From an uncultured Flavobacteriales bacterium (lineage in GTDB: Bacteria > Bacteroidota > Bacteroidia > Flavobacteriales > TMED113), in NCBI GenBank assembly GCA_964435285.1, contig CAYSYA010000002.1, positions 129,135 to 193,134 of the forward strand: a stretch of 64,000 nt of DNA, written 5' to 3'. Under the pieces are notes generated by a model. It saw nothing but the letters and a program-made list of their open reading frames with translations. It searched no databases and was not told the origin of the DNA. Positions 40,373 to 43,788 of this stretch are shown one piece after another (the stretch's first letter is position 1; each line of letters starts with the position of its first letter). A program made the position numbers and the translations under genes.

Positions 40373-42184
40373 TTAGTCCTCTCTCCACCAATATTTTTTT
40401 GGTATTTTTTCAAAAGTTATATTAATATATAAAGTATCTTTCTCTGTTTGAATAAACTTTTGGTTAAAATTTGTTTGATATCCTTCATTAGGTATTACAT
40501 TAATTGGAAGTTTATGGTTTTTTGAAAACAATGAAGTAAGATTACTTTTTTCTAGTATATTTTTATTAATAAGAACAGTACCATGTTCTTTTCCAACAAT
40601 ATTTAGGTTTAATAAATACGTTTCAATTTTAAATTTTTGTTTTAAATGTTTAAGGAAATAAGCTGGTCTTTTAATTGCAAATAATTTTAATTTGTTTACT
40701 TCCTTTTTCCAATAATCATAATTTCTCCCAATCCTTTCTAAATGATACCATCTGTCATTTAGTGATCTATTTGGTGTTCTAGTAAAATGAATTTTCATTT
40801 CTTCATCATAAATATTTTCAAACCAATCAATTCTATTAGTTAAGTATTCTGAGTTTAATTTACTTGATTTTAACCAAAAGAATTGATTGATAAAGTCAGT
40901 CTCAAAATCTTTATTTTTTAATAAATTTCTTAAGAGAAAGGTTGCCCACTGGGGATTGTACCAATGTGTCATGTATGGAGAGGTGAAATTTTTAATCATA
41001 TTATTTTTATGATCACCTAAATCAAACCCAAGATCTGTATCATAAACAATCCATCTAAACTTATTATCTAACAAGCCTGATTTCCAAAATCTAATATTTC
41101 CTCTTGCGTCATTATTTGCTATAAAAAGTTGAAATATCCACCAATTGATATAATTTCTTGTATCCATTTCTTTTTGTACATTATGATAATGAATACTATC
41201 TTTTAAATTATTTTTTTTGATATAGTTTCTTAATTTAACATAGTCTTCATTACTACCAAATTCAACTGTTTTTAATCCCTGTAAAATGGTAAGACTGTCA
41301 GATTTTATATTATAGTTATTTCTAATGTAATGATCGTTAATTTTTTCTCTTATGTTATATACGCCCCAATATTCTGCATTGATAAAAAGATGTGCAGGAG
41401 TTGATTTTTGAACATCAATATCTTCTTCAGTGATAATTGAAGTTAAAAAACTATCTTTAAATCTTGTATTATTGTGATCATTTCCTGAGTGCCTAAGAAC
41501 AAACTGCTTATATTTTTTTTTCCCAACACCAAATAAATCTGCATTGAATCTTTTTTTTCCATATTTTTCTCTTGCAATTAACCTCAAAGATTTTTCTTTT
41601 CCATATTTTGTCATCCCCCCAAATATTTTGATTCCAGAGTTCTGATTTAAAATTTGAATATTTTTGCTATTGAATATCTCAACATTTAATTTTCTTTCCC
41701 ATTTTTTTGAAAAATTAGCATTCATATGTCTTTTTTCAATAGTATCCCAGTATGCATTATATCCTTTTGCATATATACCACGACTTTCCCCTAAAAAATC
41801 TTTTTTATTAATAATGAGTGATACAACATGAAAATTTGTTTTAAAATCAATTATGAATGTGTGACAACCTAGTTCTTTAATTGAATCATTTATTTTTTGA
41901 AAAAAACATAGAGAACTTGTTTTTTCAATTATCATTGAGTCTGGAAATTCCTTTTTTCTTTTTTCATTCAAACTATTTTTTACATAAAGTAAAGTTCCTT
42001 CACAAATACTTGCTTTTAAATTTATGACGGTGTCATAAATTAATGGATTATGTGATATGTTAAAACATTTATTAGTTTGTAATGAGTCAGTAAAAACTTC
42101 TTTTTTTAAAAAAGTTAAAGAATCAATTTCTTGAGAATAGATAAATGAAATATTAATTAATAATAAAGCAAATATTTTTATCAT
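40373..42184 (-). CDS. CotH kinase family protein, signal peptide, no T9SS CTD
   Basis: GIKIFGGMT...KSLRL, FVLRHSGND, YWGVYNIREK, ANNDARGNIRFW, RWIVYDTDLGF. Confidence 0.88.
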   Translation of the reverse strand: MIKIFALLLINISFIYSQEIDSLTFLKKEVFTDSLQTNKCFNISHNPLIYDTVINLKASICEGTLLYVKNSLNEKRKKEFPDSMIIEKTSSLCFFQKINDSIKELGCHTFIIDFKTNFHVVSLIINKKDFLGESRGIYAKGYNAYWDTIEKRHMNANFSKKWERKLNVEIFNSKNIQILNQNSGIKIFGGMTKYGKEKSLRLIAREKYGKKRFNADLFGVGKKKYKQFVLRHSGNDHNNTRFKDSFLTSIITEEDIDVQKSTPAHLFINAEYWGVYNIREKINDHYIRNNYNIKSDSLTILQGLKTVEFGSNEDYVKLRNYIKKNNLKDSIHYHNVQKEMDTRNYINWWIFQLFIANNDARGNIRFWKSGLLDNKFRWIVYDTDLGFDLGDHKNNMIKNFTSPYMTHWYNPQWATFLLRNLLKNKDFETDFINQFFWLKSSKLNSEYLTNRIDWFENIYDEEMKIHFTRTPNRSLNDRWYHLERIGRNYDYWKKEVNKLKLFAIKRPAYFLKHLKQKFKIETYLLNLNIVGKEHGTVLINKNILEKSNLTSLFSKNHKLPINVIPNEGYQTNFNQKFIQTEKDTLYINITFEKIPKKYWWRED

Positions 42185-43788
42185 CTTACCCTAAGTTTTT
42201 TTCCAACTATCAAAATACTTTTTTCACCATTTTTTAAAATTTTTTTATTGAGTTTTATTAGTTTAGAAATTTCATTGTAGTCATTATAATATTGTAATGC
42301 AATTTTGCTTAATGAATCTCCTTTTTTAATTGTGTGATATTTTTTTGTTTGATTAAGATTGTTTTTTGGATAAGTAATATTTAATTCAATTCTTCTATCT
42401 CTAGTGTCATAATATTTTTGTTTTTTTGAGCCATATCCTTTCCAAGAAATATTTTTAACATCAAATCCTTTATTTTTTAAATATTCATATACTTTTCTAG
42501 CTCGGTTTTCAGAAATTTCTTGATTTACAAAATCACTACCTGTTCCTCCATCTGCATGACCCTGAATTTCAATTTTTATATTCTTATCAGAGGACAAAAA
42601 GTCAAATATTTCATTTAACCATTGTTTATCTTTAGTGGGAATGTTATCTCTTTCTTTTTCGAAATTTATATTACACTCTATTGATTTCACTCTAAATGTT
42701 ACACGTCTGTTTTTTGAAATTTCATCTTTTGTACATTTATTTTTTTTATCATCACAATAAATAATAGGTTGTGTTTCTCCATAGCCATAATAATTAATTT
42801 TTGTTGAATCTACACCAATTTTTATTAAATAATCATGAACTTTTTTTGCTCTTTTTTCTGATAGAATTTTATTTTTATTTTCATCTCCAACATGATCAGA
42901 GTGACCTTGAATTTCTATAGTTACTTCAGGTCTTTTCTTTAACATATTTCCATATTCATCTAAAAATGTAGATACTGATGGTTCTAAATCAAAACCTCCA
43001 CTTGGAAAAGGAAGATTAAGATCTAAAACTTCCATGGATTGGCTTACATATTTAATTGTATCATCTTTTCTCAGATCTTCGTAACATGGGCAAATTAATT
43101 CAGCTTTACTTTTTTCAATTTTATATTTTTCAATTGGTTCAAAATTGATAATTGCATCTTTTATTCTATCATATCCTTTCGACCAACTATCTGCACAGTC
43201 TTCCCAATAATGTAAACTTTGAAGAGTCGAAAATCCACAAAACTGTTTCAGTAATACAGCTGATATGTATCCTGATTGATGCCAACCGTTCCAACAATGT
43301 AAATATATAGGTCCTAGCTCATTATTATTTATTGCTTCATAAACCATTAAAAGTATAGAGTCTCTTGATTCTTTATCATTACCGCTTAATTGAAAATAAT
43401 CTAGTCTTTTGTTACCCTTTTCTACAAATCGAGGAGCAGTATTCCAATTTGTTTTGTATAAATAAACAATATTAGAGAAATCTTGTTCTAATAAGTTCTC
43501 AAGCCCGTCTTGAGGTAATGGGTTTTTATTTCCTCTTTTATTTTTTTTGTGATAATAATTATTTCCACCTCCTCTGTAAGCTACTCCGTGAAGAATGGAT
43601 CTAAAATTTCTGGTTCCGTATAAAATTTCTAAACCATTTCCTTTGTTATCAGTTGCTTTTTCAGTTACACAGTTAATTTCAAATTTTGATTTATAATAAT
43701 TTATTTTTTCTTCAAATGATTTATTTTTTTCTTGGCTAAAAATAAATATTGGTAGGATTAGAATTGGAATAATTTTGTTTAATTTCAC
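42181..43788 (-). CDS. Exported protein: atypical PTP/DSP-fold domain + two OmpA-like C-terminal domains + LysM
   Basis: GTG start, signal peptide; GPIYLHCWNGWHQSG; two IEIQGH.D...SE.RA..V..YL...GYG...RR units; HTIKKGDSLSKIA LysM. Confidence 0.85.
   Translation of the reverse strand: MKLNKIIPILILPIFIFSQEKNKSFEEKINYYKSKFEINCVTEKATDNKGNGLEILYGTRNFRSILHGVAYRGGGNNYYHKKNKRGNKNPLPQDGLENLLEQDFSNIVYLYKTNWNTAPRFVEKGNKRLDYFQLSGNDKESRDSILLMVYEAINNNELGPIYLHCWNGWHQSGYISAVLLKQFCGFSTLQSLHYWEDCADSWSKGYDRIKDAIINFEPIEKYKIEKSKAELICPCYEDLRKDDTIKYVSQSMEVLDLNLPFPSGGFDLEPSVSTFLDEYGNMLKKRPEVTIEIQGHSDHVGDENKNKILSEKRAKKVHDYLIKIGVDSTKINYYGYGETQPIIYCDDKKNKCTKDEISKNRRVTFRVKSIECNINFEKERDNIPTKDKQWLNEIFDFLSSDKNIKIEIQGHADGGTGSDFVNQEISENRARKVYEYLKNKGFDVKNISWKGYGSKKQKYYDTRDRRIELNITYPKNNLNQTKKYHTIKKGDSLSKIALQYYNDYNEISKLIKLNKKILKNGEKSILIVGKKLRVR

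Follow-up and report, generated by a model that had tools for sequence, protein, structure and literature searches.

Kinases of the CotH family occur widely in bacteria. Export is often predicted for them, and to our knowledge the only members with a defined biochemical role are those in the mother cell of sporulating Bacillus. In eukaryotes, Fam20C, Fam20A and Fam20B have an atypical kinase fold and act outside the cytosol on secreted or extracellular substrates, with Fam20B phosphorylating a sugar, and the Golgi lumen imports ATP. CotH is related to these Fam20 kinases of the secretory pathway (PMC7821199). Among phosphatases, TpbA of Pseudomonas aeruginosa is a periplasmic dual-specificity phosphatase (DSP) with a signal peptide, the active-site loop HCKHGNNR, Arg138 and the general acid Asp105 (PMC4409338); because TpbA is periplasmic, a Cys-based phosphatase fold can work in that compartment. 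TpbA, the Bacillus cotB-cotG-cotH cluster and the Fam20 secretory kinases are the closest functional precedents for the locus described here, a pair of adjacent genes in a 64,000-nucleotide stretch (the window) of contig CAYSYA010000002.1 from an uncultured Flavobacteriales bacterium (assembly GCA_964435285.1). Gene 1 is predicted to encode an exported, peptidoglycan-tethered protein with a phosphatase-fold domain at its N-terminus, and gene 2 an exported kinase of the CotH family (Table 1).

The initial annotation had described a two-gene minus-strand unit with a 4-nt ATGA overlap, and both coordinates and overlap proved exact when read from the DNA: the junction reads ...AGG GTA AGA TGA / ATG ATA AAA, with ATGA common to both genes. 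In ortholog pairs, gene 1 and gene 2 mostly overlap or are separated by very short gaps. The identical gene-1 protein is present on at least 24 independent marine-metagenome contigs, Tara Oceans assemblies among them, and these contigs also agree with the window in their gene calls (535 and 603 amino acids, aa) and in their neighbours. When 185,579 species were scanned with one genome each, relatives of the phosphatase-fold domain turned up in 377 genomes; the closest, at 98% identity, was the metagenome-assembled genome (MAG) Bacteroidota bacterium XS_MAG9, followed by Flavobacteriales MAGs and single-amplified genomes. Locus counts rest on the best 80 of the 377 loci with 10-kb flanks, whose open reading frames (ORFs) were searched with the window's domains. 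A CotH gene lies directly after the OmpA-fused copy of the domain, on the same strand, in 20 of 25 such loci (L004-L023; 51-98% identity), which belong to Flavobacteriales, Crocinitomicaceae, Chitinophagales and Saprospirales. In contrast, CotH genes were absent from the 10-kb flanks of all 55 stand-alone copies (Fisher's exact test, p=1.5e-14, uncorrected for shared ancestry). This test, conserved co-occurrence of HCWNGWH-type proteins with CotH, had been proposed in the initial annotation and was positive.

The pairing also extends to distant relatives, since P0214, a CotH ortholog with no more than 36% identity, is likewise preceded by the OmpA gene, which overlaps it by 4 nt, whereas more distant CotH paralogs (33-35% identity) have no OmpA-type partner at their loci. 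Clustering of the ORFs at 22 pair loci showed that only the gene 1 and gene 2 families are common to all, with flanks varying by clade, and the pair is therefore a self-contained two-gene module. Around the stand-alone copies, the only conserved neighbours were a clade-limited gene pair in six loci. Taken together, the two genes very probably form a functionally coupled extracytoplasmic module, and the comparative evidence that this module is real and undescribed is strong. In line with the initial annotation, which knew of no such system, our literature search found no description of CotH paired with a phosphatase, a phosphatase-fold protein, or an OmpA or lamin-tail domain (LTD) partner.

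Both proteins are also found as parts of one chain. Fusions form nine clusters at 50% identity (P0293, P0303, P0305, P0316, P0319 and P0328-P0331), are about 930-1160 aa long when complete and run from CotH through an LTD-like region, a transmembrane (TM) segment, a loop and a second TM segment to the phosphatase-fold domain, followed by LysM once or twice. All nine clusters retain an intact catalytic loop of CotH (D.RGN...YD.D) and an intact HCWNGWH motif; their members come from many independent Bacteroidota assemblies, such as an Arcticibacter MAG with a 2.99-Mb contig, and are annotated only as 'CotH kinase family protein' or 'LysM ... protein'. At the junction, a hydrophobic helix is followed by a short basic loop (e.g. 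KRNKKSKN), a hydrophobic segment ending in AQ, SQ or GQ and then the phosphatase-fold domain. The second hydrophobic segment resembles the signal peptide of the separate gene, and because its end looks like a signal-peptidase-I site, cleavage of the membrane-inserted precursor might yield two periplasmic proteins. Together with the N-terminal signal peptide, the topology predicted for the fusions places both domains on the periplasmic side. CotH comes first in the fusions but second among the window's two genes, which suggests repeated origin or rearrangement of the association. Gene-calling or assembly artefacts were considered as a source of the fusions and rejected, as nine clusters below 50% identity share the junction design across many assemblies. 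With the fusions and the pairs that recur down to 36% CotH identity, the adjacency cannot be peculiar to this genome.

Gene 2 is a bona fide CotH-family member for which kinase activity is predicted. Pfam CotH (PF08757) matched with E 1.9e-38 and 133.2 bits (cutoff 23.8) over profile positions 1-321 of 322, and the structural model (pLDDT, predicted local distance difference test, 86.9; pTM, predicted template-modelling score, 0.83) retrieved Bacillus cereus CotH (5JDA/5JD9) in Foldseek with E 1.8e-12 and a template-modelling (TM) score of 0.76, and nothing else significant. A single-sequence phmmer search of gene 2 against the PDB gave no match, and a full-length CotH profile reached only lamin tails there. 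After trimming to the kinase core, and with the L006 sequence left out for its low base quality, the profile matched the 5JD9 sequence with E 6e-12. In L006 (PBCX01000001.1), X residues from ambiguous bases are scattered through the translations of CotH and neighbouring ORFs. Alignment of the kinase-core profile placed D359, N363 and D382 of gene 2 opposite D224, N229 and D247 of B. cereus CotH, and the three residues are invariant in 26 homologs. D359 and D382 are 23 residues apart, as are D228 and D251 of B. subtilis CotH, of which the D228Q and D251A mutants are catalytically inactive (PMC7821199). Thus, the CotH kinase with catalytic motifs proposed in the initial annotation is borne out by Pfam, by Foldseek and by the aligned Asp/Asn/Asp set.

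Gene 2 therefore shares with Bacillus CotH (5JD9/5JDA, B. subtilis) the PF08757 family, the fold, and the catalytic and metal-binding residues with their spacing, at about 12-13% identity, but differs from it in several respects. Bacillus CotH acts in an ATP-containing mother cell, whereas gene 2 would be exported into a Gram-negative envelope; gene 2 has additional N- and C-terminal beta domains, and its orthologs carry an LTD and a TM anchor; and its partner is a phosphatase-fold/OmpA protein instead of the Ser-rich substrates CotB and CotG. Distant homologs of gene 2 have CHB_HEX_C_1/Fn3_assoc domains at the N-terminus.

Signal-peptide-like segments, as noted in the initial annotation, can be read at the N-termini of both proteins, and they are conserved in 18 ortholog pairs, mostly ending in FSQ or YSQ; in Bacteroidota, substrates of signal peptidase I usually have Gln directly behind the cleavage site. 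The N-terminal helix of gene 1 has low pLDDT in the model. Most CotH partners are about 750 aa long, with an LTD after the beta-sandwich (E 6.6e-18 in L008), a C-terminal hydrophobic helix and a Lys/Arg tail. Helix and basic tail are a sequence signature of a bitopic inner-membrane protein, the bulk of which is predicted to be periplasmic. The CotH proteins of the window and of L004-L006 have neither helix, basic tail nor LTD and end in ...KKYWWRED; the window's clade has lost both LTD and anchor. A C-terminal sorting domain (CTD) of the type IX secretion system (T9SS) was also looked for in gene 2 with Por_Secre_tail/TIGR04183, and its C-terminus gave no Pfam or NCBIfam match at E<=10, in agreement with the earlier reading of this end.

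The OmpA and LysM parts of gene 1 are ordinary. The OmpA model (PF00691) scored 121.8 bits (cutoff 27.2) in two stretches, and the peptidoglycan-binding motif N..LS..RA..V reads GHSDHVGDENKNKILSEKRAKKV in domain 1 and, as a variant, NQEISENRARKV in domain 2. LysM (PF01476) reached a marginal 25.0 bits (cutoff 20.9). Both families lie above cutoff, as expected from the two OmpA-like domains and the LysM named in the initial annotation. Among the pair loci, LysM is found on gene 1 only in the window's clade (window and L004-L006). Copies of the phosphatase-fold domain that share an operon or a chain with CotH always carry OmpA-like and/or LysM domains, whereas solitary copies are without them. 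A coupled, wall-tethered periplasmic module is thus well supported.

The phosphatase-fold domain was modelled from a 31-sequence alignment (pLDDT 89.8, pTM 0.86). The model shows a strand (161-165), a loop and a helix (171-184) in the arrangement typical of Cys-phosphatase P-loops, and the 12 Foldseek matches in the PDB at E<=0.001, like the whole top 50, are Cys-based phosphatases. TpbA ranks first, followed by DUSP23, CDC14, PIR1, RNA triphosphatases, AtPFA-DSP1, Siw14 and PTEN, with E 1.6e-4 and weaker and target-normalised TM scores of 0.5-0.7. A single-sequence phmmer search of the domain against the PDB gave a best E of only about 0.5, so profiles were needed, and NCBIfam phosphatase models did not match gene 1. 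In profile alignments, Gln171 stands opposite the Arg of the CX5R motif in AtPFA-DSP1 (HCKRGKHRTG), a Clostridioides difficile protein tyrosine phosphatase (PTP; HCTAGKDRTG) and DUSP10 (HCQAGVSRSA). The earlier call of a PTP/DSP domain was therefore upheld for the fold, by model and Foldseek, and not for a PTP-type motif, given Gln171 in place of Arg and a sub-threshold Pfam match. Trp166, Asn167 and Trp169 line the P-loop in place of basic residues. Besides the nucleophile, Cys 40, 184, 233 and 235 of gene 1 (window about 43084-43671) are conserved and include the invariant C-terminal CPC; these four could be paired in disulfides or belong to a redox or metal site.

To delimit the family, 1.84 billion representative proteins were searched exhaustively with a profile, which gave 333 clusters at E<=1e-3, of which 286 reach E<=1e-10. 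Based on these numbers, the family is small and sharply bounded, with no gradation into ordinary phosphatases. Its members are annotated 'hypothetical protein' and are mostly without a precomputed Pfam domain. Most are secreted stand-alone proteins of about 240 aa from Kapabacteria, Ignavibacteria and other Bacteroidota-related lineages; many MAGs with stand-alone domains (L024, L027, L038, L044 and others) are labelled 'uncultured Hyphomicrobiales' while their proteins are Kapabacteria/Ignavibacteria-like, and this label is probably a taxonomic mislabel. Conservation is very uneven: 32 sequences with a pairwise identity of about 47% have 57 invariant columns, which include the motifs EKxTDNxGNG, LYGTRN, YRGGxNN, KRxNxNPLP, HCWNGWHQxG, QFC and ICPC. 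Of 239 loop-containing members, 150 have CPC no more than 90 aa downstream of the loop. H164-C165 is invariant in the alignments, and His-Cys is present in all 239, where the loop pattern itself requires it. At the Arg position, the same 239 members have Q (151), A (77), S (4), M (3) or P, N, E or T (one each). A few members lack the Cys (P0283, HGWNGW, C to G; P0288, HDWNGW, C to D), and P0241 is a tandem of a degenerate first copy and an intact copy. Such a mix of live and dead copies is typical of true enzyme families.

We conclude that the N-terminal domain descends from the Cys-phosphatase superfamily and may work like its members. On its sequence, the domain is best described as a new family within the Cys-phosphatase fold and not filed as PTP/DSP, because the Arg test and the threshold of the family model both failed. 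The relation to known families bears this out. TpbA, the best structural match (4R0S/4R0T; E 1.6e-4), has about 15% sequence identity to the domain; the window domain has HCWNGWHQ and no equivalent of the general-acid Asp, unlike TpbA, which for its part has neither a wall anchor nor a CotH partner. Closest by sequence are the plant and fungal atypical DSPs (PFA-DSPs; AtPFA-DSP1, 1XRI/7MOK; yeast Siw14, 6BYF; Y_phosphatase2), with a profile E of 0.02 in matches that are sub-threshold. They share with the window family H-C-x-x-G-x-H-x-[ST]-G, in which a His immediately precedes the Arg position, and a 'GN' motif where other DSPs have their general-acid loop. In contrast, the PFA-DSP loop HCKRGKHRTG is strongly basic, which suits polyanionic inositol pyrophosphates, whereas the window family has Trp, Asn, Trp and Gln/Ala instead, together with an N-terminal extension of about 75 residues (EKxTDNxGNG, LYGTRN, KRxNxNP) and the C-terminal CPC. 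In STYX pseudophosphatases, the Cys is missing and the Arg is kept; the window family reverses this, with the Cys kept and the Arg missing in 239/239, and a few members (P0283) show a STYX-like change of Cys to Gly.

On this basis we propose the following mechanism. Gene 2 would be an exported phosphotransferase with an intact catalytic centre, which in most lineages a C-terminal TM helix would keep on the outer face of the inner membrane and which in the window's lineage, because anchor and LTD are lost, would be soluble in the periplasm. Gene 1 would be exported as well and fixed to peptidoglycan by its two OmpA-like domains and LysM, with an N-terminal domain that keeps the His-Cys pair and the anion-binding strand/P-loop/helix geometry but never the P-loop Arg. 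CotH may move a phosphoryl-containing group onto a substrate in the envelope, which could be an envelope protein or else a glycan or peptidoglycan component associated with the wall, and the wall-tethered domain may recognise this modification and remove or transfer the group through Cys165. Its chemistry would be unlike classical phosphomonoester hydrolysis and might act on, for instance, a mono-anionic phosphodiester or a sugar-linked phosphate: the presence of W, N, W, Q/A where the PFA-DSPs have K, R, K, R speaks against a polyanionic substrate or a dianionic phosphomonoester, and a mono-anionic (diester-type) or sugar-linked group would suit the loop better. In this mechanism we infer the cooperation on one substrate, the reaction directions, the substrate class and the phosphoryl donor. 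As a whole, a CotH that writes an envelope phosphoryl mark and a Cys165 domain that removes or relays it at the interface of inner membrane and peptidoglycan is a tentative proposal, which we consider possible though short of probable. An enzyme role of the domain is supported by the 57 invariant columns, the retained His-Cys and the existence of rare dead copies.

Several observations weigh against this proposal. Arg at the CX5R position is found in 0/239 members, and in PTPs the P-loop Arg is conserved throughout and its mutation abolishes activity (PMC4409338). The general-acid Asp region of DUSP10 aligns, with low alignment confidence, to S-G-N of the family, in which Gly136 is at least 90% conserved, while Asp138 of the window is not conserved; some atypical DSPs (PFA-DSPs) are likewise not known to have a general-acid Asp. 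Y_phosphatase2 (PF03162) reached only 16.9 bits (cutoff 27). Because there is no P-loop Arg, no general-acid Asp and no phosphatase model above threshold, the domain should be, by the usual rules read from its sequence, a very poor phosphomonoesterase. At the level of the loci, five of the 25 OmpA-fused copies have no adjacent CotH (one has a CotH gene 7 kb away), and no third gene that could be a substrate, a transporter or a donor supply is conserved around the pair across the 22 loci. As to the donor, we know of no recognised periplasmic ATP pool in bacteria and of no supply equivalent to the ATP import of the Golgi; polyphosphate/VTC or nucleotide-export genes were absent within about 20 kb of the pair in the window, where the neighbours are housekeeping genes. 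Accordingly, the writer/eraser pair suggested in the initial annotation stands as an extracytoplasmic, wall-anchored pair, while its eraser is weakened by the Arg count and by the change of the general-acid Asp to Gly, and a writer/reader pair or non-canonical Cys chemistry is at least as likely as an eraser.

If the phosphatase-fold domain were a pseudophosphatase, it could dock CotH or the CotH product on peptidoglycan and thereby position or regulate the kinase, as reader or scaffold. The missing Arg and general-acid Asp would then be expected, the free variation at the Arg position (Q, A, S, M) suggests that no catalytic constraint acts there, and the Cys-less P0283 (STYX-like) and P0288 keep the architecture of PTP-like domain, two OmpA-like and two LysM domains, so this architecture can function without the nucleophile. 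Pseudoenzymes, however, usually lose their motifs, whereas His-Cys is kept in all 239 pattern-matching members within a nearly invariant HCWNGWH loop; the Cys-less copies are a small minority, and a free Cys retained in an oxidising compartment argues for its use, which leaves a reader or scaffold rather doubtful, if a serious candidate. The Arg-less Cys domain could instead be a thiol hydrolase or transferase acting on peptidoglycan or on a wall-bound or sulfated glycan, with the pair serving wall remodelling. Without periplasmic ATP, the CotH fold would not be an ATP-dependent protein kinase; the loop carries Trp166, Asn167 and Trp169 instead of basic residues, and the domain is rich in invariant Asn, Tyr, Trp and Gly, a composition common in sugar-binding sites; the CotH-linked domain is always fused to peptidoglycan-binding modules; and the CHB_HEX_C_1/Fn3_assoc domains of CotH relatives are accessory to carbohydrate enzymes. 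Indeed, SIR_1594, a secreted CotH with catalytic residues, is encoded in the polysaccharide (pel) operon of the non-sporulating Streptococcus intermedius (bioRxiv 10.1101/2024.04.20.589940), although its partners, a VTC-like polyphosphate polymerase and a protein with four TM segments, are not found near the window pair. Known periplasmic phosphotransfer also uses lipid donors: LpxT phosphorylates lipid A at the periplasmic face of the inner membrane with undecaprenyl pyrophosphate as donor and is inactive with ATP (PMC2229476), though as a PAP2-type enzyme unrelated to CotH it is a precedent for a non-ATP donor only. Against such non-phosphate chemistry, which we consider unlikely, CotH keeps the exact Asp/Asn/Asp set for Mg-nucleotide phosphotransfer, and both sequence and fold comparisons find only phosphatases as the closest relatives of the Cys domain.

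The gene-1 protein could instead be the main substrate or an activating partner of CotH, its domain being enzymatically unrelated to the kinase. In B. subtilis, CotB and CotG are encoded in a cluster with cotH and efficient CotB phosphorylation needs CotG (PMC7821199), and the overlap in the window suggests translational coupling, possibly for matched product amounts. Yet gene 1 has no Ser/Lys/Arg-rich repeat region of the CotB/CotG kind, stand-alone copies of the domain are widespread without CotH, pointing to a function of their own, and conservation is strongest in the active-site-like loop, making this role very unlikely. That the genes are chance neighbours through genome compaction is effectively refuted: many genes in this compact genome overlap or have only short gaps between them, and a promoter/terminator scan was uninformative in this AT-rich DNA (34 sites versus 30 expected; window G+C about 27%), but order and overlap are kept in 22 loci with otherwise different neighbours, nine fusion clusters exist, and the association is specific to the OmpA-fused form. 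Returning to the proposed writing and removal of a phosphoryl mark, its most far-reaching form would be a true periplasmic phosphorylation cycle on peptidoglycan or some other part of the envelope, in which a soluble or inner-membrane-tethered CotH writes with a non-cytoplasmic donor such as isoprenyl pyrophosphate, polyphosphate or an exported nucleotide, Arg-less Cys phosphatases erase or relay the mark, and some Bacteroidota make both from one precursor. Such a cycle is possible but doubtful, and a polyphosphate donor is unsupported speculation.

What is new here is the combination of a kinase and a phosphatase-fold protein in an unprecedented location, anchored to the wall and with an Arg-less active site. 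For the question of what exported CotH proteins do, the module offers a partner locked in by operon and fusion, a predicted location, with CotH at the periplasmic face of the inner membrane and its partner on peptidoglycan, and key residues on both sides (D359 and D382 of CotH, C165 of the partner). A family that keeps the Cys without the Arg would represent either a new catalytic solution or a new reader of phospho-ligands or glycans. As its carriers include abundant marine Flavobacteriales (Tara Oceans), an envelope function of the module could matter for a major group of ocean bacteria.

Table 1 Features of the gene pair and of the two encoded proteins, in window coordinates
Feature	Coordinates	Strand	Size or residues	Description and basis
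Gene 1	42181..43788	minus	535 aa	GTG start; exported peptidoglycan-tethered protein, predicted (ORF, Pfam)
Gene 1 signal peptide	43735..43788	minus	1-18	MKLNKIIPILILPIFIFS, cut before QEK; read from sequence, ortholog N-termini similar
Gene 1 phosphatase-fold domain	43069..43716	minus	25-240	AlphaFold, Foldseek, conservation; signature HCWNGWH[Q/A]SG
Gene 1 P-loop HCWNGWHQSG	43270..43299	minus	164-173	Cys165 at nucleophile position; Gln171 at Arg site of CX5R
Gene 1 ICPC motif	43084..43095	minus	232-235	End of phosphatase-fold domain; invariant in alignments
Gene 1 OmpA-like domain 1	42682..43020	minus	257-369	Pfam OmpA, E 1.5e-35, best stretch 261-349
Gene 1 OmpA-like domain 2	42370..42672	minus	373-473	Pfam and NCBIfam give two stretches; bounds from sequence
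Gene 1 LysM	42187..42336	minus	485-534	Pfam, E 1.8e-5
ATGA overlap	42181..42184	minus		Gene 1 stop/gene 2 start; suggests translational coupling; read from DNA
Gene 2	40373..42184	minus	603 aa	Exported CotH-family kinase, predicted; short form without LTD and membrane anchor
Gene 2 signal peptide	42134..42184	minus	1-17	MIKIFALLLINISFIYS, cut before QE; read from sequence, conserved in orthologs
Gene 2 N-terminal beta domain	41810..42064	minus	41-125	DSSP strands in model
Gene 2 CotH kinase core	40658..41632	minus	185-509	Pfam; profile alignment to B. cereus CotH
Gene 2 catalytic loop NNDARGNIR	41090..41116	minus	357-365	D359 and N363; aligned to B. cereus QNFDGFVHN
Gene 2 metal-binding motif YDTDL	41030..41044	minus	381-385	D382; aligned to B. 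cereus WDYD
Gene 2 C-terminal beta-sandwich	40406..40621	minus	522-593	Followed by KKYWWRED; model

Elsewhere in the window, a 732-aa ORF with a TTG start (56746-58944, plus strand) has no Pfam match at E<=1e-4 and is the only large gene without a recognisable domain in the part of the window that was scanned. A gene at 36556-37626 (plus strand, GTG start) encodes a Rieske ring-hydroxylating oxygenase alpha-like protein (Rieske 4.4e-15, Ring_hydroxyl_A 3.8e-25) and stands alone, with no beta-subunit or reductase gene nearby. The gene at 37882-40359 (plus strand) is convergent with gene 2, with 13 bp between the gene ends, and has a local G+C of 0.35 compared with about 0.27; it encodes an 825-aa acidic, Cys-rich secreted protein with Kazal-like repeats, whose family (F6) lies beside the pair only in the window's clade. 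This protein ends in a T9SS CTD (Por_Secre_tail 1.2e-10, NCBIfam 4e-10), which served as positive control for the CTD search.

A second CotH paralog is encoded 2 kb from the pair (45859-48171, plus strand; 770 aa, CotH and LTD). The initial annotation had assigned a T9SS CTD to it, which was not recovered: its last 103 aa gave no Pfam or NCBIfam match at E<=10, and its similarity to the verified CTD of the neighbouring protein was confined to a local stretch of 18 residues. The paralog is 19% identical to gene 2 and contains two poly-Gly-Pro inserts (GGGPGGGGPGG...) within the kinase region. Its catalytic Asp columns align with those of gene 2, and the same arrangement is found in L004 and L006.

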